Assembly (NCBI GenBank): GCA_017421095.1
Contig: JAFQMB010000142.1
Span: 1-45,576 of the forward strand
Direction of reading: 5' to 3'
From: Oscillospiraceae bacterium
Lineage (GTDB): Bacteria; Bacillota; Clostridia; Oscillospirales; Ruminococcaceae
Length of the DNA stretch: 45,576 nucleotides
Part shown: in pieces, positions 3,346-43,656 of the stretch
Layout of the letters: each line of letters starts with the position of its first letter
Position numbering within the stretch: position 1 is the stretch's first letter
Notes under the pieces: generated by a model
Databases searched by the model: none
Told to the model about the DNA's origin: nothing
The model's input: only the letters and a program-made list of their open reading frames with translations
Program-made: the position numbers and the translations under genes

Positions 3346-6300
3346 TGCCACGGGCTGCTCACCTCTTCTCCGTTCATCATCGGTTTTTGATGGGACTCTT
3401 CTGCTTGAAGCAACCGATAAAAAGCATCTTTATCCGGCTCGCTCATGGTCAGCGTTTTTTCTGCCATCTCGTTTTGGCAGATAGCTTGATAGGCGCAATA
3501 ATCGCACCGACAGCTCTTTTTGGTCACCCGGGGCAGCGCCTCGATCCGACCCTGCATCAATTGATCTGCCATTTCGCAAAGGGCCTTTTCCACATGGGCT
3601 CTGATGGCCCCGAGTTCCTGCAAGGTTGCCAGCGTTTCTTCCTTGGAATAGCCGCCGTTTTTTTTGCAGGCAGCAGGAATAAACAGTCCTTTTCCTGTGG
3701 GATCCATCCCGGAAAGCACCGCCTCATCCTGTAACACAATTCCCTGCATGGGGAACTGACGGATCACCTGCTCATCCGAAAGGGTTTCGCTCCCCTCTTT
3801 CCATTCGGGTCGGGCAGGGAAATAAAGAATACCGGCAGGGATTCGGTTGCCGTAACGCGTTTCTCCGTCCCGCCAGATGGAAAAGAGATACAAAAGCATC
3901 TGCAGATTCAAACCGTAATAGACATCCCGCAGGGCGAAATCCTTGGTGCCCGATTTATAATCCACCACCCGGATATATTTGACCCCCTTCTTTTCCATCA
4001 CATCCACCCGGTCGATCTTACCCACTACCGAAATCTCGTTGCCGCTTGGAGTGCAAAGGGTGAAGGCAGGTAATCCTTCCCTTTCGTCGCCCATGGGAAG
4101 TTCCGGATCCACAGGAACAAATTCCGACTGTTCAAATTCCAACGCCAACCGACGAATCATCAACGCCAGCGTGGACGAAATTCGGGTCAGTTTCGCCTTT
4201 TGCCGAGCAGAAAGGCTTTCAATATCACAAAAATTCTCTTTGGCAAAGGCATAGACCTTTTCCTTGCAAAAGGCCTTGATTTCGGCTTCGGAAAGGGCGA
4301 TCAGCCCATCGCCGCCAAATTCCCGAACAGCATCTTCCAACACGCTGTGAATGAGATTTCCGGCCTCCAGCGGAGCGATCTCTGCCTTGCGGCGCTCTTT
4401 CAAAAAGAGGGCATATTCCAAAAAATAAGAAAATTTACAACCGTAAAACCGATCCACCCGAGAGGCACTGAGTTTCACCGGACTGCCATAAAGGGTTTTG
4501 GCCGCCTCCTGATCTTCCAATTTCCAAATTTTCGGAAGAGACGCCTCCTCCAAGGCCTCTGCGGCAGCAGGATCTATTCTTTTCAAGGCACCAAACAAGG
4601 TAGCCTCTTCTTTTGTTCCCCGGCCAAAATGGGCCGAAGCCTGGGTGCGAAGGGTTTCTTTGTTGCAAACAAACAAAACAGGATCCAGCGCCGAAGCCTT
4701 TTCTTCTTCCAGATCCCAAAAAATCTCCTTCACATTTTGCAGATATCGGCTGGGCTGCAAGGGGGCATAATTTCTGTCTGTTCCGGCATAGGTAATAATC
4801 ACCTTTTCCGAAGCAGCGGTCAAGGCGGTATAAGCCACCAGATCCTCGCGGATGGCCATGGATTCTTCCAATCCGCCCAAATCAATCTCGCATTCCAGCA
4901 AAGCGCGGCGATCTTTTGGGGTCACCAAACTTCTGTTTTCCCCCTCCAACGGCCAGCTTCCGTGTGTAAACCCGCTGACAAAACAGATTTTTCGGTTGTC
5001 GGTTCTTATGCGGTCGGCGGTCCCCAAAAGAACGCTGTCCAAGGTGTTTGGCACTTCCCCCAAGGTGTATTGGGCGATTTGCAGATCATAAAGACGGATA
5101 AAAGTGGGCAGATCCATGGATTCGTTTCCAAAATGGGCCACAAACTGATCAAACACCGCTGCCAGACAGGCATAAACTCGACGGCTTTCTTCCAGCAAAT
5201 CGGGCTCGTTCCCCATCTCTTTTGTATAATGTTCTTCCAGATGCCGCTGGACCTCTTCTTTTTCCAAAAATTCCCATATTTTTGCGGCAAAAGTTCTGCC
5301 GTCTGCCTGTTTCAAATCATCTTGCAGATGCAAAAGCGGCCCAATCAGCCCTTTTCTGACCGATTCCAAATGAGCCAGTTCCACTCGATCCCGGCTACTC
5401 ATTTCCCCTTTCATCCCACTGGGCGGAGAGAGAAAGGGCTTTTTCCAACGGCCGCGGTCGATCTGCCAGATATAGGCATAATTTTCCAATTGGCTGATGG
5501 TTTCGTCATCCAGACCGGTGGCGCCGGTTTTGACATAGCGCAAAAGATCTTCGGTTTGAAAACCATAGCGCAAGACATCCAAAAGGGCGCGCAAAAACAC
5601 CGCCAGCGGCTTGTTTGCCACCGACTCTCTTTGATCCAAAAAGAGGGGAATCTGATATTTTGCAAAGGTGTGGGCAAAAAGATCGGCATTTTCTTCCAAA
5701 GATCGGGTGATGACCACCACATCTCGGAAGCGAACCGCCTCTTTTCGAACCGCTTCCAAAATCAAAGCGCAGACGGTTTCCACCTCCTGATAAACATTGT
5801 CGCAGGCCAAAATCCGCACTCGTTTTTCGCAAGAAACCTTTTCCGGCTTCTCTTCCGATAAAAAGCCCTCTTCCAGTGCCAAAAGGGCATCGTTTTTCGC
5901 CCGCAGGTTTTTTTGCAGGAAAACGGGCGCAGCCACATCCGCACCGCATCCTCTTGCCAGAGAAAGCAGATCCTGCAGGGTTTTATGATTTTCCGAAAAA
6001 AGGCCAAATCCACCGCTTTTATCCCGTAATCCATCGGAAGTCAGCGCAACAACCACCTTTTCTGCCTGACACAGCATCACCGACAAAAGTTGACTCTGTG
6101 CTTTGGAAAACCGATCAAAGCCATCCAGATAAAAAACGCTGCCGGCAAAAAAGTTTTCCGATTCTGCCGCCTCAGAAGCACGGATCAAACAGTCTGCCGG
6201 ATCCATCACGCCCTCTTCGATCAACTGCTCATAAGAAGCATAAAGGGCCGCCAAGTCCGAAAGGCGCATTCCCATTCCCTTGGGCAGTTTGCTTGCCGCC

Positions 6301-6709
6301 TCTTCCAGTTGCAAGGGGTCACCGCACAGGCGGAAGCCTCGTCAAAAAACGCCAAAAGCTGCTCCGCAAAACCGGGGGCGGTTGCCGCCTTTTGATAAAC
6401 CTGCAAAAGATCCTGCACCGTCATCGCCGCTCTGGCCGCCAGCAGCGCCTTTCCCCCTGCATCCAAAAAGCGGGGACTTTTGCCGGCTGCTTCAAAAATT
6501 CTTGTAGCCAACCGGGTGAAAGAAAGCACCTGCAAACGGAAAAAATCCGGCCCTGCCAACTGGGATGCCAGATTGCATTCACTTTCAAAGGAAAACTGCT
6601 CGGGCACCAAAAAGACCACGTCTTTTCCTGCCGCCAAATCTTCTGCCATCTGTCGGCGCAGGGTTTCTGTTTTTCCGCTTCCGCTGCGGCCGATCACCAG
6701 TTGCAGCAT
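3342..6709 (-). pseudogene. addB: ATP-dependent helicase/nuclease subunit B (AddB), split into two ORFs by an apparent 1-nt frameshift near 6315
   Basis: ORF 6221..6709 carries the N-terminus with Walker A (GRSGSGKT). ORF 3342..6314 carries the remainder, including the C-terminal Fe-S/nuclease cysteines (CRCDYCAYQAICQ). The frames meet at ...ACAVTP / LQLEEAAS; one extra C in the CCCC run (plus-strand GGGG 6315-6318) would restore a single ORF. Confidence 0.8.
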
Positions 6710-9534: not shown

Positions 9535-11310
9535 TTACATCCCCATTCGGGTAACACCCCAATACATCCGCTGATTTTTCACCCGCTCCCGTTGTTCTTC
9601 ACTCAACTGATCCGCTTTGGCCCAGGCCGCATCGATATGCCTGCTGATGACATCCTCGTAAGGATGATAAACCTCAAACAAATAAGGAGCAACCCAGGTC
9701 ATGGTAAAGGTGGATTTACAATGCTCTGCCGCATCTGCCAAGCAGCGATAATAAAGGAACATATCCTCTGCTGCTGCCCCATAAAGTTTTTGGCAGGCAT
9801 CATAAAGAAGAGTTTCCGCATCCCTGCTGTCATCCCACATTCCAACCGCCGTGGGATACCAAAGAGGCCAACGCAAGACCCCTTCGTCGCCATGGGCATC
9901 GTAAAACACGTCGTCCACCCCATAGGCTTCAAAAAGTTCCAGATTTCTTGTGGTCACATTTCCCTGCACCCAAGGAGCCATATCCCAACCGGCTCTGGTG
10001 CCGCTGAGGCAATACCAACCCCAGATGGCCTTGTGCTGCAATTCGGAGTTGGTGATATAATCGGAAACGCTGTCCTTCCAGGATTGGGTATAGGTGTTGT
10101 GGGTGATGCTGTTGAAGCCGGTGGGAATCAGATGCCCCTCATCCAAAGGCAGCATCAGACTGGTTTCCAAACAGAACATCACCTCTACGTTGGGCAGCGC
10201 CTTTTCTTTCACCGGCGGGAAAAAGGTGGTGTGATAGGCCAAAATGCTGATCTGTCGGTCGGGGTATTTTTCTCCCACAATTTTGGCCACATTGTTGGCA
10301 AAAATGAGCAGCTCATCGGTGTCGCTTCCGGCCGCCACGCACCTTTCACACTCGCACCAGTTTTCTTCCCAGCCGTCGTTGGCTGCAATGGAATAGTTGG
10401 TCTGCATCGGTCTGGCATCAAAAATGCTGATAATCCGCCCGGCCACCTCTTTGGCCAGTTCCTCGTTGGTATAACAATACTGCCAATAGGTGAAACGGCC
10501 GGGGTCTCTTGAACCGTCCACCAAGGCAAACCATTCGGGATGCTCTTCATAATAAACCGAAACCGGAATCAAACCGGGCACTCCGTGGCCGATGTGGTTC
10601 ACCTGGCCGCCCAAATACCAACGACTAACGAGATTGGCATCCAGTCTGTTCAGCCGACGGGAAGAAAATCTCGGGCTCTGTTCCAGGTCCACCTCATCCA
10701 CGCCCAAGCTTTCACAGGATGGAATCACCTGCCAAAGGGGATCGGCAGCAAACCAACCGCATCCCGCCTCTTCCAGAAAACGGTTTACCGCAAACTGGGT
10801 GCCGGTATAGTTGCCCGAATCGTTTCCGCAAAGAATGAGATAATTTTCCTTGCGCTTGATCACCAGTTTTTCTTCGCCGGGATATTCCTCAAAGGGGCCG
10901 ACGCCCAGCGCTTTGGTTTTTTCGGTCATCCCCACCAAAATATAATTGCCTTCTGCGGTCATTTCGCTTTCGCTGATTAAGGGCAATACCACACCGGTCA
11001 TTTCGGAAATATGATATTGCAGATCCCAGGCCGCTTTTTCGGCTTTTTCTTCTTTTTGATCGGAAATCACAATCATGGCCCTGGCTGTCTTTTCTTCCAC
11101 CAGTAAAAAATCGTCTGTTTCCGGTGTTTGAGAAACAAACTTTTCATCAAGAACCGGCAACGCTCTCTCTACATCCGCCTCGTAATTTGATGTTTCGGAA
11201 GAACTCTTCTCTTCTTTGGGCGGATTTTGCTCACAGGCAGTCAAAACCATCATACCGCTCAAAAGGAGCGCCAGGAAAAACGCCGTCAAACGCATCGTTC
11301 GCTTCATCAT
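9535..11310 (-). CDS. DUF4838-like putative glycoside-hydrolase-related lipoprotein (paralog 1)
   Basis: Start at MMKRTMRL (11310), after a GGGGGA RBS. The signal peptide has a lipobox (LTAC). Family-like blocks include GNYILVG...NYLILCGNDSGNYTGTQFAVNRFLEEAGCGWF, NDGWEENWCECERC and GWYC. Confidence 0.8.
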   Translation of the reverse strand: MMKRTMRLTAFFLALLLSGMMVLTACEQNPPKEEKSSSETSNYEADVERALPVLDEKFVSQTPETDDFLLVEEKTARAMIVISDQKEEKAEKAAWDLQYHISEMTGVVLPLISESEMTAEGNYILVGMTEKTKALGVGPFEEYPGEEKLVIKRKENYLILCGNDSGNYTGTQFAVNRFLEEAGCGWFAADPLWQVIPSCESLGVDEVDLEQSPRFSSRRLNRLDANLVSRWYLGGQVNHIGHGVPGLIPVSVYYEEHPEWFALVDGSRDPGRFTYWQYCYTNEELAKEVAGRIISIFDARPMQTNYSIAANDGWEENWCECERCVAAGSDTDELLIFANNVAKIVGEKYPDRQISILAYHTTFFPPVKEKALPNVEVMFCLETSLMLPLDEGHLIPTGFNSITHNTYTQSWKDSVSDYITNSELQHKAIWGWYCLSGTRAGWDMAPWVQGNVTTRNLELFEAYGVDDVFYDAHGDEGVLRWPLWYPTAVGMWDDSRDAETLLYDACQKLYGAAAEDMFLYYRCLADAAEHCKSTFTMTWVAPYLFEVYHPYEDVISRHIDAAWAKADQLSEEQRERVKNQRMYWGVTRMGM

Positions 11311-36497: not shown

Positions 36498-36527
36498 AAA
36501 AAGAAAACCCCGTCAGCAGACGGGGTT
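36498..36527 (-). terminator. terminator of the 36539..37246 membrane-protein gene
   Basis: AACCCCGTC-agca-GACGGGGTT; on the minus strand a U-rich run follows. Confidence 0.7.
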
Positions 36528-36538
36528 CGGTTATCTTC

Positions 36539-37246
36539 TTATTCTTCCTCTTCATCGGGCAGATGAACGATGAATTTTTTCTTAGGAGCCGGCTGTTGGG
36601 GTTCTGTTTCCTTCTGGAGAACATCATTCGCCTCTTCCGCCACCCTGGGTTCTGCGGCGGCAAAAACCGGTTTTGCTTCTGCCGGGGGCAGCGAAATGGG
36701 TTTCATCACCATCAATCCCGCCCGATAAACATAAGGGGCAAAGGAAACACCCAAAACGATGGAAAGGATCATGGTCAGGGTGAACTGTTCGGGGTCCGCC
36801 CAGCGCCAAAGCACCGCAGCAGAAAGATATTGCACCACCAGGCCAAAGATCAAAAAGGCGATAAACAGACTGCCGAACACCAAAATCGAAGTGACGGTGG
36901 AAGCGATCATGGGGAAACGGCTGTTAATGAAAAACAGACAAAGGCTGATGAAACAACCGCTGATGGCAATCAAGGAAAGAGAAAAGAGCGGTGTATATTT
37001 TTTTGCCTTTCGATTCTGCTTTTCCGCCAAAAAGGCGAAATAGGCCAATTGTGCCACAGGAACGAAAGCCAAAAAGCGATTTTTTTCCTTTCTTGCGGTG
37101 GCATATTGCAGCACACCGAAAGAATAAAGCAGATACGAGGCAATGCAGACGGCGGCAATCAGATCCACCACCAAAGCAATTGCCAGGTTCACCGAATTGG
37201 TGGTCCAATCCATCATCGGATTGGCCGACAGCAAAAGGTTTCTCAT
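36539..37246 (-). CDS. hypothetical polytopic membrane protein with a Pro/Glu-rich C-terminal tail
   Basis: About 5 hydrophobic helices followed by the tail [38 protein letters not shown]...DEEEE. I recognise no family. Confidence 0.6.
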
Positions 37247-37452
37247 TGATCTTCACCCAATTTCTTAAAATTCCAACACCGATTGTGTTTTTCTGTTTTA
37301 GCGGCTGTCAGGATAAAACCACAAAACAACCCATTTTCTGTTATTATATCGTTCTTTCCGCTGTTTTGCAAGAGAAAGAAAAAATATCTTTCTACTTCGA
37401 CTGTCAAAGGAAGAGGTTTTTCCTCTCTTTTCAAGACTTTTACACAAAACAG

Positions 37453-37481
37453 GTGACAACCCAAACAAAATATGTTATAGT
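37453..37481 (+). promoter_or_regulatory. promoter of xpt (GTGACA-17-TGT-TATAGT)
   Basis: GTGACA at 37453-37458, a 17-nt spacer, and an extended -10 TGTTATAGT at 37473-37481. This leaves only a leader of about 20 nt before the RBS. Confidence 0.5.
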
Positions 37482-37506
37482 AATCGGGAAGACGGAGGTG
37501 GCATGG

Positions 37507-38094
37507 ATGAATTTTTTGGAAGAGAGAATCGCCAAAGAGGGCATTGTGAAAGAGGGAAATGTGCTGAAGGTGGACAGTTTTTTGAATCACCGGATGGATA
37601 TTGCACTGCTGGAAGAAATGGGCAAGGAATTTCACCGTCGCTTTGCAGACAAGCCCATCACCAAGGTGTTGACCATTGAAACCTCGGGCATTGCCATCGC
37701 CTATCCGGTGGCAAAGGCTTTCGGAGTGCCGCTGGTTTTCGCCAAAAAATCCGAATCTGTGAAACTTGACGGCGATGTGTATACCGCCGAAGTCGAGTCC
37801 TTCACCGAGAAGAAAAGCAATCGGGTGATCGTTTCCAAAAAATTCCTCACCTCGGAAGACCGGGTGCTGATCATCGATGATTTTCTGGCCAACGGCTGTG
37901 CGCTGCAGGGGTTGATCTCGCTGGCTTATCTGGCCGGCGCCGAGGTTTCAGGCATCGGCATCGCCATTGAAAAGGGCTTCCAGAACGGCGGCGAACGCAT
38001 CCGCAATCTGGGATATCGTCTGGAATCTTTGGCCATTGTTGAACAGATGGATGCCAAAACCGGGGAAATCACCTTCCGCCCCCAAAACGGATAA
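37507..38094 (+). CDS. xpt: xanthine phosphoribosyltransferase
   Basis: GGAGG lies 8 nt before the ATG at 37507. [11 protein letters not shown]....LKVDSFLNH and the PRPP motif [11 protein letters not shown] are present. Confidence 0.92.
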
Positions 38095-38136
38095 GTTTTC
38101 TGAAAGCAGAGAAAAACTTCAGGGAAAAACAGAAAC

Positions 38137-38171
38137 AACCAGCCCGCCGAATGGCGGGCTGGTTTCTTTTT
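38137..38171. terminator. strong terminator after xpt, also facing the convergent anti-sigma gene
   Basis: A 12-bp stem AACCAGCCCGCC-gaat-GGCGGGCTGGTT followed by TCTTTTT, with an A-rich run upstream. Confidence 0.85.
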
Positions 38172-38243
38172 GCGATATTTTCAAGAGAGGTAATGCCCTT
38201 TTGGGAAACAAGCAAACGAACATATTTTGCAAGCAGCGGCAGA

Positions 38244-38888
38244 TCAGCCGGTTCCTACACTATAAATTTTCCATCCTCCACCTTTCGTTCTTACCATTGT
38301 ATAAATCAAATAACTTTCCGTATAAGGAAGCGCCGCGCCGCCGGCATATGGGGAAGAACGATATTTCACACTAAAAACCATACAACCGACGTATGTGACA
38401 TCATCTCTCTTCTCGGAATTGATATACGCAAGTTTGCTTTCGGAAACATCGTCGCCTGAATAGGTGACAGAATACAATCTCGTTTTTGTTTCGGGCCGAT
38501 ATTGATATTTGATCAGTGCGATCACCTCGCCTATCTCTTCTTTGGTATAAACCTCAGAGGTTCGGTAGTCGATCGTTGGCGGCCAAAAATCATTGCAGAA
38601 CAGAAAAACGATCAGCGCAAGAAAAGCCGAAAGGCAAACCCAAACCGTAATCTTTCTTTTCATTCTTTTCTTTACCGTTTTGAAATCCGCAACAGCGCAG
38701 CTATTATCCTTATTCTTTTGCGCGATGATATTCTCTGCTTTGCCCGGTTTTGCCAAACGCTCCAGTTTTGCGGCGCAATCCGGGCAGCTTTTCAAATGCG
38801 CCTTGATATAATCGGCGGTTTCGGAACTGACCATCTCTTCCAAATAAAGGGGAAGCAGATCACAAACCACACAGCAATCATGTTTCAT
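38244..38888 (-). CDS. anti-sigma factor (zf-HC2 N-terminus, one TM, extracytoplasmic domain)
   Basis: The HLKSCPDC (H-x3-C-x2-C) zinc-finger motif and TM segment ITVWVCLSAFLALIVFLFC. The start overlaps the ECF sigma stop by 11 nt. Confidence 0.8.
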   Translation of the reverse strand: MKHDCCVVCDLLPLYLEEMVSSETADYIKAHLKSCPDCAAKLERLAKPGKAENIIAQKNKDNSCAVADFKTVKKRMKRKITVWVCLSAFLALIVFLFCNDFWPPTIDYRTSEVYTKEEIGEVIALIKYQYRPETKTRLYSVTYSGDDVSESKLAYINSEKRDDVTYVGCMVFSVKYRSSPYAGGAALPYTESYLIYTMVRTKGGGWKIYSVGTG

Positions 38889-39378
38889 TCTGTTGTTCCT
38901 CCCATCTGCTTTTTATCATCATTCTCGCACGGTGATAGGTCACGCAGGCCCAATTTTCAGATTTTTCGAATATTTGGCCGATCTGTTTGAAACTCAACTC
39001 TGCAAACACCCGCCACATAAAAACTTCTTTATACGGATCGGGGAGCTCGTGTAAAATATTTTGAATTTGCAAAGTTTCTTCGTTTCTGGCAAGCGCTTCC
39101 TCAAGATTTTCGCCTTGGTCGGCGAGATTCAGAAGTTCGGGATCATCAACAAGCTCCATGCGCTTTTTCTTTTTCAAATAAGAATAATAACAATTCTTGG
39201 CAATCTGACAAAGCCAAACCCGAATGTCGCAATCCCCCCGAAAACGGTCAATGGCGTTCATTGCCTTGAAAAAGGTGTCTGCGGTGATTTCTTCCGCGAT
39301 CTGCTCATCACCGGACAATTTGCGGATGTATCGGAAGACATCGGTAAAATACATCCGATATATTTGTTCAAATTCCAT
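38878..39378 (-). CDS. ECF-type RNA polymerase sigma-70 family factor
   Basis: 166 aa. Region 2 is DVFRYIRKLSGDEQIAEEITADTFFKA...FRGDCDIRVWLCQIAKN; region 4 is LPDPYKEVFMWRVFAELSFKQIGQIF..SENWACVTYHRA. Confidence 0.88.
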   Translation of the reverse strand: MEFEQIYRMYFTDVFRYIRKLSGDEQIAEEITADTFFKAMNAIDRFRGDCDIRVWLCQIAKNCYYSYLKKKKRMELVDDPELLNLADQGENLEEALARNEETLQIQNILHELPDPYKEVFMWRVFAELSFKQIGQIFEKSENWACVTYHRARMMIKSRWEEQQNET

Positions 39379-39405
39379 CGACCGATCACCTGCCTTCGTA
39401 TATAT

Positions 39406-39431
39406 GACGCTTGAAAACAGAAAATCTTACA
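39406..39431 (-). promoter_or_regulatory. possible ECF-type autoregulated promoter (TGTAAG-16-CGTC)
   Basis: On the minus strand, TGTAAG (39431-39426), a 16-nt spacer and CGTC (39409-39406), 28 nt upstream of the sigma ATG. It only partly matches the xxAAC/CGTC pattern. Confidence 0.25.
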
Positions 39432-39686
39432 AAATATTTTGCGGAAATTTCAAAAATTTCTTGCCGCAATTTTATTTTACTACTTTATACGGCGCAGCAC
39501 AAGAATCCAATAAAAAATCACGCTGAAAGCGTGTATGGAATCAGGCCGACAAAACATACTCTTTCGGTGATACCATCCGCGACTTCGTCGCAATTCCATG
39601 ATAGTCCTTCCTTCGTCGGCCCGGATAAAAAATAGCCTGCTTTCGCAGGTCGTTTTTTGCCCAATGTGAGAAACTTGTATCAAAAC

Positions 39687-39809
39687 AAAACGGGGTTGGT
39701 CTTCTCTCGCAAAAGTTTGGCAAAGCCTGCGGCTTTGCGAGGCTCAACAATGGGAAACTCGTATCAAAAACAAAAAGACCCATCTTGCGATGAGTCTTTT
39801 TGTTTTGGT
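39687..39809. repeat. copy A (partial) of the ~165-bp tRNA-Leu-associated repeat
   Basis: 39691-39809 matches copy C at 117/119 positions by hand alignment. It contains the GCAAAGCC-tgc-GGCTTTGC hairpin and the AGACCCATC-ttgc-GATGAGTCT terminator hairpin, but lacks the tRNA-3'-like head. Confidence 0.85.
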
Positions 39810-39854
39810 AATTGTACTTTACGATGAATCCCGCACTGCGAATTATGGCCACAA

Positions 39855-40331
39855 TTATGCTGTTTTGTAGTATTTCTTGATTAACTCTTCGAGTTTTTCA
39901 TCATCACAACTAAGATGCGTGGTTGAGATGGTATTGCCATCAGCATCAAAAGTTTCTCCGTATCCGGCAGAAGAATAAAAGGTGTATTGTCCGTTGGAGA
40001 AGTTGATTCTAATGACCCAGTCGCCGTATGAAAAACTGGGGTCCATTGCCACAAGGGCAAAGATAATGGTGTCCGAGAATTTGAGGTTTGAAAAATCATC
40101 CAAAAAAGCTTCATTGTCTTTTTCGGATAATGTATAGGCAGGCTCATAGATTTTATCAAACCCCGGCTCGCCGTTTCCCTCCTGAATGCGCAGATCATAA
40201 AACTGTATCGAAACTATTTCTTCGGCGGAAATATCATAATATTTTTTGACAGGGATTATGATACAAGCGCTCAAGGAGAAAAGCAAAACAAAAGTCATAA
40301 TCATCAATAAAAACTGTTTGAACCGTTTCAT
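39855..40331 (-). CDS. small lipoprotein of unknown function
   Basis: GGAGG lies 8 nt before the ATG at 40331. MKRFKQFLLMIMTFVLLFSLSAC carries a lipobox. I recognise no family. Confidence 0.7.
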   Translation of the reverse strand: MKRFKQFLLMIMTFVLLFSLSACIIIPVKKYYDISAEEIVSIQFYDLRIQEGNGEPGFDKIYEPAYTLSEKDNEAFLDDFSNLKFSDTIIFALVAMDPSFSYGDWVIRINFSNGQYTFYSSAGYGETFDADGNTISTTHLSCDDEKLEELIKKYYKTA

Positions 40332-40404
40332 CACCGCACCTCCTCTATGGATATTATACAGCAAAAAGAAAACAATCGCAACTCATATCAATGCGGTTGT
40401 TCTT

Positions 40405-40576
40405 TGATTCGGATAACAGGAGTTACGGACCTACGTTTTGCGCCAAAAAACGAAACGGGGTTGGCCCTTTCTCGCAAAACTTCAGCAAAGCCTGCGGCTT
40501 TGCAAGGCTCAACAATGGGAAACTCGTATCAAAAACAAAAAGACCCATCTTGCGATGAGTCTTTTTGTTTTGGTGC
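40405..40576. repeat. copy B of the ~165-bp tRNA-Leu-associated repeat
   Basis: 40410-40576 versus 41772-41938 gives 159/167 identical with no indels (hand alignment). It begins with a tRNA-3'-end mimic (cggataacaggagttacggacctacg) and ends in ttttggtgcag. Confidence 0.9.
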
Positions 40577-40652
40577 AGTGAGTGATGATAAATCCGAACC
40601 AAATGCCTCTTCAAAGTGGAGCGTAGATGAAAAACGGCAAACTACAATAACA

Positions 40653-41501
40653 TTAGAGTTCTTTAAAAAAAGCCTCGGTCTTTCCGTGAAGGTCAAAGGA
40701 ATGCCACGCGATTGCAATGTTTTCATTGTAATTTATATAAAGATATTGCCCCATCATTCCGCCTTTTGCATATCCTTTTTCTTTTTTACCAAATTCGTAA
40801 GCGCGTTCCAGTACAATGTTAACCCATTCTTGTGATATAATTCTTTCTCCGTTCCATAATCCGTTATTCAAATAAATACGCCCAAGCTTTACCATATCCT
40901 CTGTGCGTAAATAAAGTCCGGTTGCACCAACAGGATAGTTTTTAGGGCATTTTGACCACGCAACTTCACGACAGCCTATTTTTTTAAAAAGACGGTCCAT
41001 AAGAAATTCATCAAGCTTCTCGCCGCTTATTTTGGTTACTATACGGGAAATAAGATAGTAGGCTGCATCAGAATAATCCCTGATCGTTCCGGGATCATTC
41101 GTCAACTCGCGGTCAAGCACAATAAACAGAAAATCATCCGTAGGGTATGTTGTAATGTCTTCTGTGTCAATATCAAGAAAGCCTGCGGAAAAGCCGATTT
41201 TATGGCGCAAAACATGATCGATCGTAACATTTTGCCATTTTCTTTGAGGAATTCCATACTGTTTCAGCTCGTCAGAAAAAATATCTGCAATCGTTGCATG
41301 GGGTGAAAGTTTTTTTTCGTCAAAAAGCATCCCTATTGCTGTGACGCAAAAAGCTTTAGCGACCGAATAACAGTTTTGACAAGGATTTGCCGGTATTCTT
41401 TCAAGAGTCTCAATTCCGTTTTCGGTAGAGACACTCAAGCAGTATGTGTTTATATCATTTCTTTTGGCAATATTATCAAGCTTTGTCAGTATGTCCAACA
41501 T
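40653..41501 (-). CDS. beta-lactamase-family serine hydrolase (PF00144-like), cytoplasmic
   Basis: GGAG lies 6 nt before the ATG at 41501. It has an SxxK motif (YSVAK), a YSD motif (Y-x-N position) and no signal peptide. Two 60-nt samples I counted in this gene were 35% GC, against 48-50% in flanking core genes. Confidence 0.75.
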   Translation of the reverse strand: MLDILTKLDNIAKRNDINTYCLSVSTENGIETLERIPANPCQNCYSVAKAFCVTAIGMLFDEKKLSPHATIADIFSDELKQYGIPQRKWQNVTIDHVLRHKIGFSAGFLDIDTEDITTYPTDDFLFIVLDRELTNDPGTIRDYSDAAYYLISRIVTKISGEKLDEFLMDRLFKKIGCREVAWSKCPKNYPVGATGLYLRTEDMVKLGRIYLNNGLWNGERIISQEWVNIVLERAYEFGKKEKGYAKGGMMGQYLYINYNENIAIAWHSFDLHGKTEAFFKEL

Positions 41502-41546
41502 TTTCTTCTCCAATCAAGTCAGTTTGATTATTTGCATTATCGCTTT

Positions 41547-41578
41547 GGTATAAAATTGCAACGGAAATTTTTTATACC
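41547..41578. promoter_or_regulatory. 9-bp inverted repeat GGTATAAAA-N14-TTTTATACC in the serine-hydrolase 5' region
   Basis: The arms lie at 41547-41555 and 41570-41578, between a candidate promoter (minus strand TTGCTC-17-TATACT) and the RBS. Confidence 0.3.
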
Positions 41579-41716
41579 GTTTATAGTATAGCATAAAAGG
41601 CATGGAAGAGCAAGTGATATGCGATGGAACTGATCCAAGTAGCGCTTTCATAATACTAATTTGCAGCAAGTAAGCATTACAGATCACCGGAACACACGTT
41701 TTCTGCGAAAACATAA

Positions 41717-41760
41717 AGAAATCCGAACCCTTCGCCTACCGGCTTTGGGTTCGGATTTCT
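41717..41760 (-). terminator. 14-bp-stem hairpin immediately after the pseudo-tRNA 3' end
   Basis: AGAAATCCGAACCC (41717-41730) pairs with GGGTTCGGATTTCT (41747-41760) around a 16-nt loop. On the minus strand it is followed by TTATGTTTT. Confidence 0.5.
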
Positions 41761-41767
41761 ACTGTTT

Positions 41768-41932
41768 GGTGCGGATAACAGGAGTTACGAACCTACGTTT
41801 TGCGCCAAAAAACGAAACGGGGTTGGTCTTCTCTCGCAAAACTTTGGCAAAGCCTGCGGCTTTGCGAGGCTCAACGATGGGAAACTCGTATCAAAAACAA
41901 AAAGACCCATCTTGCGATGAGTCTTTTTGTTT
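41768..41932. repeat. copy C of the ~165-bp repeat, directly abutting tRNA-Leu(CAG)
   Basis: It starts with tggtgcggataacaggagtt (41768-41787), identical to the tRNA 3' end at 41933-41952. It then has a 2-nt insertion and diverges. It carries the same two hairpins; its terminator hairpin serves the tRNA operon. Confidence 0.9.
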
Positions 41933-42019
41933 TGGTGCGGATAACAGGAGTTGAACCTGCACCGAGTTGCCCCGACTAGAACCTGAATCTAGCGCGTCTG
42001 CCTATTCCGCCATATCCGC
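41933..42019 (-). tRNA. tRNA-Leu (anticodon CAG), class II with long variable arm, CCA encoded
   Basis: Minus strand: GCGGATATGGCGGAATAGGCAGACGCGCTAGATTCAGGTTCTAGTCGGGGCAACTCGGTGCAGGTTCAACTCCTGTTATCCGCACCA. Acceptor stem GCGGATA/TATCCGC; anticodon stem CTAGA/TCTAG with loop TTCAGGT. Confidence 0.93.
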
Positions 42020-42069
42020 ATATACCGTATTCAATTTTCCGGTTACAGGAATCCGAAGGGAGGATCAGA

Positions 42070-42156
42070 TGGTGCAGACGGCGAGACTTGAACTCGCACG
42101 AGCTTACGCTCACTACCCCCTCAAAGTAGCGTGTCTGCCGATTCCACCACGCCTGC
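42070..42156 (-). tRNA. tRNA-Leu (anticodon GAG), class II, CCA encoded
   Basis: Minus strand: GCAGGCGTGGTGGAATCGGCAGACACGCTACTTTGAGGGGGTAGTGAGCGTAAGCTCGTGCGAGTTCAAGTCTCGCCGTCTGCACCA. Anticodon stem CTACT/GGTAG with loop TTGAGGG. Confidence 0.9.
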
Positions 42157-42203
42157 ATGACTTTCCGGGCCATCAATTCGGGCTTTTCCCAAACCGCCCT
42201 GCT

Positions 42204-42232
42204 ATTCTATCACGCCGCATCCTGATTGTCAA
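42204..42232 (-). promoter_or_regulatory. promoter of the tRNA-Leu pair (TTGACA-17-TAGAAT)
   Basis: On the minus strand, TTGACA (42232-42227), an exactly 17-nt spacer and TAGAAT (42209-42204), about 45 nt upstream of the first tRNA. Confidence 0.7.
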
Positions 42233-42277
42233 CCCTAAATTTTATCTTTTTTGATTTTCTTTCCCCGAAATTGTGCC

Positions 42278-42316
42278 AAAAAAAGAGGAGAGAACGGGAT
42301 CTCTCTCCTCTTTTTC
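42278..42316. terminator. bidirectional terminator ending the recA-recX-DUF512 transcription unit
   Basis: A 10-bp stem AGAGGAGAGA (42284-42293) / TCTCTCCTCT (42302-42311), flanked by A7 and T-rich runs. Confidence 0.8.
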
Positions 42317-42324
42317 TTTTTGTT

Positions 42325-43656
42325 TTATGCCTCCAAAGAGCGCCCCAGCATGGCCGAAAGCAGCGAATGGCCATCGTCTTCCACCACCCGAACAGAAACG
42401 CCGAATTTCTCTTCCAGATCCGAAGGGGTCAGATCGTCCAAAAAACGGCTGCCGGTGGATTCCAGCATATGCTCACAAAGCAAAATTTCCTCACCGATGG
42501 GTTTGTCTGTCAGCCCGTCGATCAGATCTTTGCCAGCCAAAAGACCGGCCACCGTGATGGTCTTTCCAAAGGTTTTGTTTTGCAAAGCAAAAACATCAAC
42601 CTGCAGAAAAGGAAAAACTTCTTTGGCTTTGGCGGCCAATTTTTCCAAAAGCGGCGCCGCCAGCATCCCGGTGGGAAGGGTGACACGCCGCGGCTGTTCC
42701 AAAGAAAGACCGGCTACCTTTGCCTCTTCCAGCGCAGCCATAAAATCGTTTTCCAGGGAAACACACATGCCCACCCCGTTTTCCAACTGAGGGAAATCAT
42801 CATAACGGGACTCTTCGGGCAGATCCATCCCGGCCAAAATATAAAATTCATCCGAGGCGTGGAAGCGATAAAAACCGTCCCGTGCAAAGGATTCTTTCGC
42901 CGCTGCATCGATCCGCGCAATCACATCCCGCGCCCCTTCTTTGTCAAAGAGATGCAACTCCTCCAGCCCTTCCCGATGGGCAGTCAGCCCCACCGGCACT
43001 GCCGAAACACTGCGAAGGGCGTCACCCAAATCCAAGAGATCCCTCAGGCTGCGGGAAAGTTCCTCTTTGTCGTTCCAGCCGGGGCAGAGCACCAACTGGC
43101 AGTTGAGGGCGATTCCGTGGGCGGCAAAGGTTCTCAAAATTTCCAAACTCTCTCCGGCGAAACGGTTTCGCATCATCCGACAGCGCAGTTCGGGATTTGT
43201 TGTGTGCACCGAAACGTTCATCGGGCTGATGTGCATTTCCAAAATTCTTGTGACCTCGTCGGGGGCAAGGTTGGTCAGGGTGATATAATTGCCGAACAAA
43301 AAGGAAAGGCGGCTGTCATCATCCTTGAAATACAAACTCTCCCGCATTCCCTTGGGCATCTGGTCGATGAAACAGAAAACACAGCCGTTGCGGCAACGGC
43401 GCTGTTCATCCATCAAGAAACTTTCAAATTCCAGTCCAAGATCGGCACCGTTTTTTCTGCGGAGACGGATATCTCGTTTCTTTCCTTTGGAAGTTTCCAC
43501 CTCCAAGAGGCAGATGCCGTCCTCTTCCAAATAAAAATCATAGTCCAAGAAATCATGAATCTCGTGGCCGTTCACAGAGACAAGCCGATCTCCCGCCGCG
43601 ATTCGTTTTTTGGCCGCAAGGCTTCCTTTGACCACATTTTGAATGATAACCGCCAT
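42325..43656 (-). CDS. DUF512 protein (N-terminal PDZ-like plus radical-SAM-like core)
   Basis: Start at MAVIIQNV (43656). The translation has an ...AAGDRLVSVNGHEI PDZ-like segment, then CRNGCVFCFID. The family assignment is from memory. Confidence 0.75.
   Translation of the reverse strand: MAVIIQNVVKGSLAAKKRIAAGDRLVSVNGHEIHDFLDYDFYLEEDGICLLEVETSKGKKRDIRLRRKNGADLGLEFESFLMDEQRRCRNGCVFCFIDQMPKGMRESLYFKDDDSRLSFLFGNYITLTNLAPDEVTRILEMHISPMNVSVHTTNPELRCRMMRNRFAGESLEILRTFAAHGIALNCQLVLCPGWNDKEELSRSLRDLLDLGDALRSVSAVPVGLTAHREGLEELHLFDKEGARDVIARIDAAAKESFARDGFYRFHASDEFYILAGMDLPEESRYDDFPQLENGVGMCVSLENDFMAALEEAKVAGLSLEQPRRVTLPTGMLAAPLLEKLAAKAKEVFPFLQVDVFALQNKTFGKTITVAGLLAGKDLIDGLTDKPIGEEILLCEHMLESTGSRFLDDLTPSDLEEKFGVSVRVVEDDGHSLLSAMLGRSLEA

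Follow-up and report, generated by a model that had tools for sequence, protein, structure and literature searches.

Degenerate tRNA-Leu(CAG) ends in an Oscillospiraceae genome are probably joints of stacked gene cassettes without a recombinase of their own

Downstream of a tRNA-Leu(CAG) gene in the genome of an Oscillospiraceae bacterium the 3' end of that tRNA recurs in degenerate form, and the locus raises the question of what these displaced ends represent. The window analysed here covers positions 1 to 45,576 of contig JAFQMB010000142.1 of the metagenome-assembled genome (MAG) GCA_017421095.1. An earlier note on this DNA had taken the copies for att-site scars left by integrase-mediated insertion into tRNA genes. 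In our judgement they are probably the recombination joints of a stack of short, recombinase-less cassettes that were inserted site-specifically at the tRNA-Leu(CAG) 3' end or right beside it. The att-type character of the joints was borne out, and the idea of dead scars was abandoned because the borders belong to cassettes that moved recently.

The duplication of the tRNA-Leu(CAG) 3' end is real. The 22-nt sequence TTTGGTGCGGATAACAGGAGTT is present without mismatch at 41931-41952, at the tRNA gene, and at 41765-41786, and a 91% identical copy lies at 40403-40424 (repeat family D3); by our own estimate, an exact 22-mer pair would be expected by chance about 6e-5 times in 45.6 kb. As had been described, the second copy carries a 2-nt insertion (ac on the plus strand) after 20 nt and retains the hexamer gaacct; past this hexamer a weaker similarity extends into the variable arm (ggcgcaaaacg versus ggggcaactcg). 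The third copy shows the same indel, its hexamer reading ggacct and not gaacct. A tandem duplication of the tRNA 3' end together with downstream DNA was ruled out, as a different terminator follows the pseudo-end. The displaced ends are not isolated scars; they form the last ~42 nt of a repeat family of 165-174 nt, and the pseudo-end, including the 2 nt inserted in its T-loop, belongs intrinsically to this structured 165-nt unit and is conserved in it.

Copies of the unit, named C, B and A, alternate with single-gene segments. In the direction of the tRNA the array runs tRNA-Leu(CAG), unit C, a hydrolase cassette, unit B, a lipoprotein cassette and unit A, beyond which an extracytoplasmic function (ECF) sigma/anti-sigma pair and then xpt are found. 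The array begins right behind this tRNA gene, which is intact; the att-type core CTCCTGTTATCCGCACCA is made up of the final 18-20 nt of the tRNA (41933-41952). Every segment border bears the tRNA-terminal core (C)GCACCAA(A) or a decayed copy of it (GAATCAAA, TTACCAAA). The 8-mer GCACCAAA is identical at all three intact joints (J1, J2 and J3), and the decayed core of J4, GAATCAAA, was also found in sister strains that lack the hydrolase. The sequence of the J2 joint, GCACCAAAcagtag, recurs behind tRNA-Leu(TAG) in contigs L059 and L072, behind another segment in L060, and in L056, where it is preceded by '...accc' at the cut left end of the contig. The islet has a GC content of ~0.40, compared with ~0.50 in the flanks on both sides, and its open reading frames (ORFs) are those of the hydrolase, the lipoprotein, the sigma factor and the anti-sigma factor; no recombinase was found among them (ORF list and Pfam). 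The bracketed segments measure 0.17-1.2 kb and hold one gene or none, and are thus as unusually small as had been remarked.

Evidence on how the array changes comes from a natural empty site. The host is the sole species of its genus among the genomes compared, and no relative of its DUF512 protein above 58% identity was found among 5.8 billion proteins; for these two reasons an empty-site comparison with named relatives was impossible. An exact look-up of the DUF512 protein likewise returned nothing. Sister strains were available only as metagenome contigs, to which the lipoprotein and hydrolase cluster representatives (99% identical) led; the samples behind L055, L058, L060 and L062-L068 are those of ENA ERZ272275xx, ERZ286538xx and ERZ28654xxx and of Logan SRR23105306 and ERR9539573. 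One of these contigs, L055 (ENA ERZ27227510 k141_130729), is 98.2% identical to the window over recA, DUF512, both tRNAs and one unit, and then runs straight into the lipoprotein gene. The earlier note had considered that both pseudo-3' ends might persist in relatives without the accessory genes; this hydrolase-less strain has one, not two. Its single unit combines a C-type interior (GCCTCGC, GCCAAAG, GAGAAGACC, GGTTCG) with a B-type 3' end (TTATCCGAATCAAAgaacaacc), and for this reason the joint of the hydrolase indel, whose mapping the note had proposed, was placed inside the 18-nt core that is identical to the tRNA. The two haplotypes differ by 1362 bp, that is, by the hydrolase and one unit, and at the level of sequence this difference is accounted for by one reciprocal exchange inside CGTAACTCCTGTTATCCG, the 18-nt core. 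Homologous recombination would have preferred the 62 nt that match perfectly at the 5' end of the units, and the exchange does not lie there.

The hydrolase is absent from at least five independently assembled contigs (L055, L062, L063, L064 and L068). L055 was read at sequence level, and the others were judged by their gene spacing, which is the same as in L055. The arrangement of the window, with the hydrolase present, appears in three contigs (L058, L065 and L066), and L067 has a short unit A and ends before the hydrolase site. In the hydrolase-less haplotype unit A is likewise short, its first hairpin (T1) being followed directly by GATACAAGTTTC... without the core.

Divergence between the window and L055 is uneven. 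The sigma/anti-sigma/xpt side (window 36501-39685 and L055:3834-7021) is 92.3% identical, as against 98.2% on the recA-DUF512-tRNA side. The array thus marks the border between segments of different divergence, for which recombination with another lineage may be responsible.

The hydrolase segment was also found in other settings, at 97-99.7% nucleotide identity with at least four left flanks and at least four right flanks, and the homology stops at GCACCAA in every one of these contexts. In L057, L059 and L072 the cassette is 97.0% identical over 1234 bp and stands directly behind a tRNA-Lys(TTT)-tRNA-Leu(TAG) pair, tRNA-Leu(TAG) being intact upstream of it in L059 and L072. The left joint behind tRNA-Leu(TAG) reads ...caggcGCACCA/AAcagtag..., and the right joint reads ...cactcacgGCACCA/ACCaaaaaagg in L059 and ...cactcactGCA/AAAACAGAAAGAG in L072. 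The cassette of L056 (98.5% identical) reads accc before the core at its left end and has yet another right flank, and that of L060 (99.7% identical) shares its right side with the window and differs from it on the left (...cgccattcGCACCAAAcagtag). The genome of L057 is very distant, with an HSP33 45% identical and an Rnf-type protein 38% identical to those of the window genome, both being core proteins encoded beside the cassette. These comparisons show a recent, horizontal spread of the hydrolase cassette to tRNA-Leu genes of distant genomes.

The same contexts settle the origin of the right edge of unit B. The octamer tggtgcag (40571-40578) does match the first 8 nt of the plus strand of tRNA-Leu(GAG) at 42070, as had been pointed out, and its derivation from that tRNA was ruled out: the hydrolase cassette has this 3' end in every context (cactcacT/gGCACCA), and carries it along behind tRNA-Leu(TAG). 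The same modular behaviour is shown by another type of cassette, whose hydrolase protein is 87% identical, its DNA being 94-98% identical across contexts and its flanks unrelated or ~76% identical. An identical hydrolase protein, P0305, is encoded in two array contexts (L073/L076 and L074/L075), and a third context, that of the related L044, contains the cluster representative P0002.

The architecture of the window is repeated at other loci. In JAFXHA010000070.1 (MAG RGIG6407; L073/L077) tRNA-Leu(CAG) is followed by a unit (unit'), a hydrolase cassette, a second unit' and the next gene, and the cassette ends in a 55-nt partial tRNA that extends from the anticodon loop to CCA. The terminator and the interior sequence of unit' differ from those of the window unit, and its end, GGCGCAAAGCG-AGGTTCGCAAATCCTGTTACCCGCACCA, has the same 2-nt T-loop insertion. 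The pseudo-acceptor of each unit matches the tRNA of its own host (TTACCC in JAFXHA010000070.1, TTATCC in the window). L075 displays tRNA-Leu(CAG), cassettes, a partial tRNA, a hydrolase and a further partial tRNA, and L044 shows tRNA-Leu(CAG), a hydrolase and a pseudo-end with a 4-nt T-loop insertion. In L070 a 68% homologue of the lipoprotein opens with the same GAACAACC, right behind a pseudo tRNA-Ala end. A relative of the same family, G022, carries at its tRNA-Leu(CAG) a 9-kb island bounded by a direct repeat of 57 bp whose start lies in the anticodon loop (L041 = G022:C39, repeat copies 1673-1729 and 10693-10779); this island encodes an ABC transporter, an M20 peptidase, MatE and a serine-recombinase ORF that is truncated to the Recombinase and Zn-ribbon domains.

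The island of G022, a conventional one at the same tRNA with a truncated recombinase, invites the reading that the window holds dead scars only, that is, integrase-bearing islands which decayed to single genes and att remnants and of which nothing is mobile now. The lack of an integrase and the decay of cores J4 and J5 and of the unit A tail would fit this reading. We find it scarcely credible, given that unrelated genomes hold the cassette at 97-99.7% identity and behind different tRNA-Leu genes, that its presence is polymorphic within one species, and that the identical P0305 occurs in at least two array contexts.

The shortness of the shared joint raises another possibility, namely target-specific transposition next to CACCA(AA) by a transposase acting in trans (HUH/single-strand or target-selecting DDE type), the 7-9 nt then being the target word or its duplication. 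The sequence shared at the joints amounts to only these 7-9 nt and is identical in every context, and the strong hairpin at every cassette start and the structured unit recall the ends of IS200/IS605-type elements. We hold transposition to be very unlikely. The cassettes of L073 and L075 end in 55-nt partial tRNAs starting in the anticodon loop, a hallmark of the att sites of tyrosine integrases, and the pseudo-end of the unit tracks the acceptor of the host tRNA as att hybrids do. No terminal inverted repeats and no transposase gene were found in the islet, to which this search was confined. Insertion by site-specific recombination at the tRNA end remains our preferred reading.

Several further loci show related layouts. 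In L070 (3004-4000) tRNA-Ala(CGC) is followed by a gene of the SF0329 family, a pseudo tRNA-Ala end (CGAACCCCTTCGAGTCTAACA) and the lipoprotein homologue, and a stretch of 75 nt, reaching from the tRNA end to the promoter and including the terminator, is repeated at 73% identity. Stacking thus also takes place at a tRNA other than tRNA-Leu. Two contigs of the host genome itself that bear tRNA-Leu(TAG) and tRNA-Leu(TAA), C137 (1-120) and C76 (1-140), both break ~120 nt past the tRNA, within a repeat common to both, in which a terminator is joined by short hairpins with (A/G)ATGATAT between them. A hairpin repeat of similar kind, with AATGATG, in GCA_017504205.1 (L047:3295-3475, 3930-4145 and 6266-6322), downstream of tRNA-Met, separates single small genes, including an 83% hydrolase homologue. 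Hairpin repeats of this type may represent another class of cassette spacer linked to tRNA genes. A small ORF composed of 54-nt tandem repeats that encode KIYIGEYGRNCAYHIEGN-like 18-mers was also seen (L047:6433-6594 and L049:2499-2768); two assemblies of one array disagree in the number of its repeats.

A closer look at the 165-nt unit revealed a common anatomy in its copies at 41765-41938 (C), 40403-40576 (B, 95% identical to C) and 39682-39809 (A, 98% identical to C). The unit begins directly after ...ACCA with T1, a perfect 18-bp bidirectional terminator hairpin, continues into a core of ~100 nt and ends in GGCGCAAAACG-T-AGGTTCGTAACTCCTGTTATCCGCACCA, which corresponds to the end of the variable arm, the T-arm (with 2 extra loop bases) and the acceptor-CCA of tRNA-Leu(CAG). 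The interior of unit B differs from that of unit C by six private substitutions. An nhmmer search over the whole 1.6-Mb MAG returned four copies only, the fourth being 79% identical and placed on contig C216 (960-1100), where it follows the terminator of an unrelated alpha/beta-hydrolase-like ORF. With so few copies and no terminal inverted repeats, a miniature inverted-repeat transposable element or another repeat derived from an insertion sequence was ruled out.

The C216 copy ends in ...CCCTGTCTCCGCCG, which is closer to the acceptor ends of the genome's own tRNA-Ser (TCTCCGCCA) than to those of tRNA-Leu. This end hints at a further version of the unit family, adapted to tRNA-Ser.

Searches for the unit elsewhere returned little. 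Rfam at a permissive threshold over 39000-42400 recognised the two tRNAs only, the matches to terminator hairpins being so far below threshold that they were treated as noise, and BLAST of the unit against 60 relatives (family and order) yielded only terminator-like or tRNA-like pieces. Exact patterns of the unit core and pseudo-end gave 0 matches in metagenome contigs (two patterns) and 0 in viral contigs (two patterns); in genome contigs the first pattern gave 0 matches and the second matched JAFXHA010000070.1 only.

The window unit and unit', folded independently, adopted the same Y-shaped topology, with z-scores of -3.1 and -4.6. The shared fold comprises a closing stem P1 (GARCCU/AGGUUC), an 8-bp hairpin P2 with a GCA loop, and a long hairpin P3 that ends on GGCGCAAA. 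P2 is 100% paired in the alignment, and 4 of its 8 pairs are changed on both sides between the two lineages; in P1 pairing is kept where G-U is replaced by A-U. Both lineages have P3, with a shift of one register between them, and because of this shift the column-wise pair counts under-report it. The G-U pairs of the unit favour the gene-direction strand. These compensatory changes, drawn effectively from two to three independent lineages, are suggestive of a conserved fold, and we infer that the structured unit would be an arm or an accessory part of the recombination site. The positions of these elements and of the array are collected in Table 1.

Table 1. Positions in the window of the tRNA genes, the joints, the cassettes and the elements within them
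Feature	Positions	Strand	Description	Basis
tRNA-Leu(GAG)	42070..42156	-	upstream member of the tandem tRNA pair, outside the array	ARAGORN; Rfam RF00005, 45.9 bits
tRNA-Leu(CAG)	41933..42019	-	anchor of the cassette stack	ARAGORN; Rfam, 54.6 bits
Junction J1 (tRNA / unit C)	41931..41938	-	core GCACCAAA	
Unit C	41773..41930	-	gene-less 165-nt cassette	
Unit C, T1	41894-41933	-	bidirectional terminator hairpin	
Unit C, P1 5' strand	41867-41872	-		
Unit C, P2	41847-41865	-	hairpin, GCA loop	
Unit C, P3	41835-41842 paired with 41797-41804	-		
Unit C, P1 3' strand	41789-41794	-	pseudo T-arm	
Unit C, pseudo-acceptor	41772-41784	-		
Junction J2 (unit C / hydrolase cassette)	41765..41772	-	core GCACCAAA	
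Hydrolase cassette	40577..41764	-		borders are homology limits against other contexts
Hydrolase cassette, start hairpin/terminator	41718-41759	-		
Hydrolase cassette, promoter	41585-41593	-	extended -10 TGCTATACT	predicted
Hydrolase cassette, end arm	40577-40600	-	GGTTCGGATTTATCATCACTCACT	
Junction J3 (hydrolase cassette / unit B)	40569..40576	-	core GCACCAAA	
Unit B	40411..40568	-	95% identical to unit C	
Junction J4 (unit B / lipoprotein cassette)	40403..40410	-	decayed core GAATCAAA	
Lipoprotein cassette	39812..40402	-	opens with GAACAACC	
Junction J5 (lipoprotein cassette / unit A)	39804..39811	-	decayed core TTACCAAA	
Unit A, long form	39615..39803	-	98% identical to unit C down to 39682	
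Unit A, T1	39767-39806	-		
Unit A, internal duplication	39670-39681	-	20-nt duplication GATACAAGTTTC...	
Unit A, terminator hairpin	39636-39649	-	CCTGCGAAAGCAGG	
Unit A, pseudo-acceptor tail	39615-39628	-	more decayed, TTATCCGGGCCGAC	

As for the cargo, the hydrolase coding sequence (40653-41501, minus strand) encodes a 282-aa serine hydrolase of the beta-lactamase family (Pfam PF00144, E 6.6e-22), with relatives at 87-99% protein identity, in contrast to the DUF512 protein of the same genome. The end arm of its cassette is a second copy of the right arm of the opening hairpin. The lipoprotein coding sequence (39855-40331, minus strand) encodes 158 aa with a signal peptide and a lipobox-like LSAC, and matched no Pfam family.

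The opening hairpin of the hydrolase cassette differs between contexts. Compared with L059:361-402 and L072:5108-5149 its arms are identical and its 16-nt loop is inverted (aaagccggtaggcgaa in the window, ttcgcctaccggcttt in the tRNA-Leu(TAG) copies), the whole palindrome being flipped. A 55-nt mini-cassette in L075 (8507-8562) is made up of that hairpin only (AACAGTAGAAATCCGAACCC...GGTTCGGATTTC...CCCTGCACCA), with GCACCA on both sides, and the hydrolase gene looks as if it had been inserted into such a hairpin-only mini-cassette. In L056 (1168-1291) an extra 125 bp, bounded by ...ctttgaa and ...attgaa, lies between the stop codon of the hydrolase and the end arm.

Taken as a mechanism, site-specific stacking would work as follows. 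Each cassette is self-contained: it opens with a bidirectional terminator hairpin, by which termination of the tRNA transcript would be restored, may next hold a promoter and one gene, and closes with a mimic of the T-arm, acceptor and CCA, by which the target for the next insertion would be recreated. The haplotype of the window would most simply have arisen when a resident array of tRNA, unit and lipoprotein recombined, at the unit core, with a circle bearing the hydrolase cassette and a unit; the arrival of unit B with this proposed circle would explain its six private substitutions. The reverse event, excision of the circle of hydrolase and unit, would be equally possible. A circular hydrolase cassette closed head-to-tail (40577 to 41764) would be recognised by a junction reading ...cactcactGCACCAAAcagtag...

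Cutting and joining would be carried out by a tyrosine-type integrase acting in trans. This type of enzyme is our best guess because related cassettes carry long partial tRNAs from the anticodon loop to CCA, and because the pseudo-end of the unit is a hybrid, divergent on the left and identical to the host on the right. The enzyme would be supplied by an unbinned element or a helper, the Xer proteins of the host being less likely. In the MAG (99% complete, 1.6 Mb) there are two matches to PF00589, one of them an Xer-like ORF on C65 and the other a short fragment on C9, and none to PF00239 (serine recombinase); the best tyrosine recombinase is XerC/XerD-like (148 and 137 bits). A parent integrative and conjugative element (ICE) or integrative and mobilizable element (IME) was found neither in the MAG nor in the flanks of the other contexts, and MAGs often miss mobile elements. 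Of the integrase-mediated insertion put forward in the earlier note, the site-specific borders and the empty site are thus observed, and the enzyme would have to be supposed.

Several observations weigh against this account. Neither an integrase nor an excisionase for the cassettes was observed, and the unit copy on C216 has no tRNA nearby and lacks GCACCA. The placement of the crossover depends on few single-nucleotide differences between unit C, unit B and the unit of the sister strain, and all comparators are metagenome contigs or MAGs, in which some chimerism is possible. The difference between the long and the short form of unit A is bounded by a 16-nt microhomology and not by the core, and was probably produced by slippage, gene conversion or RecA-dependent recombination. 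Units C, B and A are, moreover, 95-98% identical and in direct orientation, such that RecA recombination or gene conversion could yield the hydrolase indel.

These last two features, together with the failure to find an integrase in the MAG, are what one would expect if portable homology were shuffled without any site-specific enzyme, by transformation and RecA crossovers in the repeats, with loss by unequal crossing-over. We regard such shuffling as unlikely. The right border of the cassette in L059, L072 and L056 shares only ~7-9 nt (GCACCAA) with the recipient, where there is no unit, and this is far too short for RecA-dependent exchange; the hydrolase indel has its joint in the last 18 nt of the unit despite the 62-nt perfect block at the 5' end; and donor and recipient genomes are only 38-45% identical in protein. 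Site-specific insertion at the tRNA-Leu(CAG) end is the reading retained.

A wider and more speculative interpretation may be drawn by analogy. It is possible, though doubtful, that gut Clostridia (Oscillospirales-like) hold a tRNA-anchored, integron-analogous system of gene capture, in which the tRNA-Leu 3' end would act as attI, each cassette would bring a tRNA-end mimic, the unit would be an accessory or recombination site that, like attC, is recognised in its folded form, and the enzyme, housekeeping or unrecognised, would act in trans; in such a system other tRNAs, e.g. tRNA-Ala, would probably also serve as attI-like anchors. The discovery of an enzyme acting in trans would make the array a compact platform for gene capture in anaerobes that are abundant in the gut and uncultured. 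Such a platform would help to explain strain-level variation of accessory genes in small 1.6-Mb genomes with no visible mobile-element machinery, and its short, defined att sites would be of use for genetic tools in Clostridia. As for the gene-less structured unit, it is a minimal att-arm cassette or else a structured nucleic-acid element of a new kind.

Transfer RNA genes are the classic landing pads of large islands that carry their own integrase, and the array shares several traits with tRNA islands of tyrosine integrases. Insertion is at the 3' part of a tRNA that stays intact, a displaced and partly divergent tRNA 3' fragment marks the far end (22 nt here, 55 nt in L073 and L075), successive insertions push older ones away from the tRNA as in tandem islands, the DNA is foreign (low GC, transferred), and presence or absence is precise at the att borders, as seen in the sister strains with the 18-nt core. 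Unlike such islands, the array has no integrase in or near any segment, its segments measure 0.17-1.2 kb with none or one gene instead of 5-100 kb, and the hydrolase cassette of the window type shares only the last 7-9 nt of the tRNA.

Cis-mobilizable elements (CIMEs) offer another comparison. As reviewed in PMC5704250, CIMEs keep attL and attR, have lost the genes for integration and transfer, and accrete in tandem at one att site, and composite excision through non-adjacent att sites is expected, with ICESt1-type elements as the case in point; these elements are catalogued in ICEberg 2.0 (PMC6323972). The cassettes of the window are likewise flanked by att-type sites and devoid of integration and transfer genes. 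CIMEs differ in being decayed ICEs or IMEs of several kb beside a related functional ICE, whereas here no parent ICE or IME is visible, and the cassettes, each with terminator, promoter, one gene and tRNA-end mimic, give the impression of being purpose-built and recur across very distant hosts. The variable islands of Prochlorococcus that contain tycheposons adjoin tRNA genes, and scattered partial tRNAs within them are attributed to older events in bioRxiv 10.1101/2020.12.28.424599. The array resembles tycheposon remnants in its segments separated by partial tRNAs beside a tRNA gene; it differs in having neither the tyrosine recombinase that tycheposons carry nor the replication module that they usually have, nor a packaging module, and in its host, which belongs to a gut Clostridia lineage.

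With integron cassettes and clusters of attC sites lacking integron-integrases (CALINs) the array has in common single-gene modules in one orientation, structured repeats between them, a structure better conserved than its sequence, and plausible multi-cassette circles. In contrast to integrons, its cassettes carry their own promoters and terminators and the anchor is a tRNA gene rather than an attI site. An integron with attC sites was ruled out, as the unit ends do not pair, no GTTRRRY core is present, and the folds are a terminator and a Y-shaped core; an IntI in the MAG was ruled out as well, the integron-integrase model scoring 30 bits against a cut-off of 265. On the best reading the array resembles CIMEs and tycheposon remnants and departs from each known family in the integrase or the parent element. 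What sets it apart from large tRNA islands are exchange units of 0.17-1.2 kb, insulated by their own terminator and promoter, recombinase-less, and recently swapped at family-level distance or beyond.

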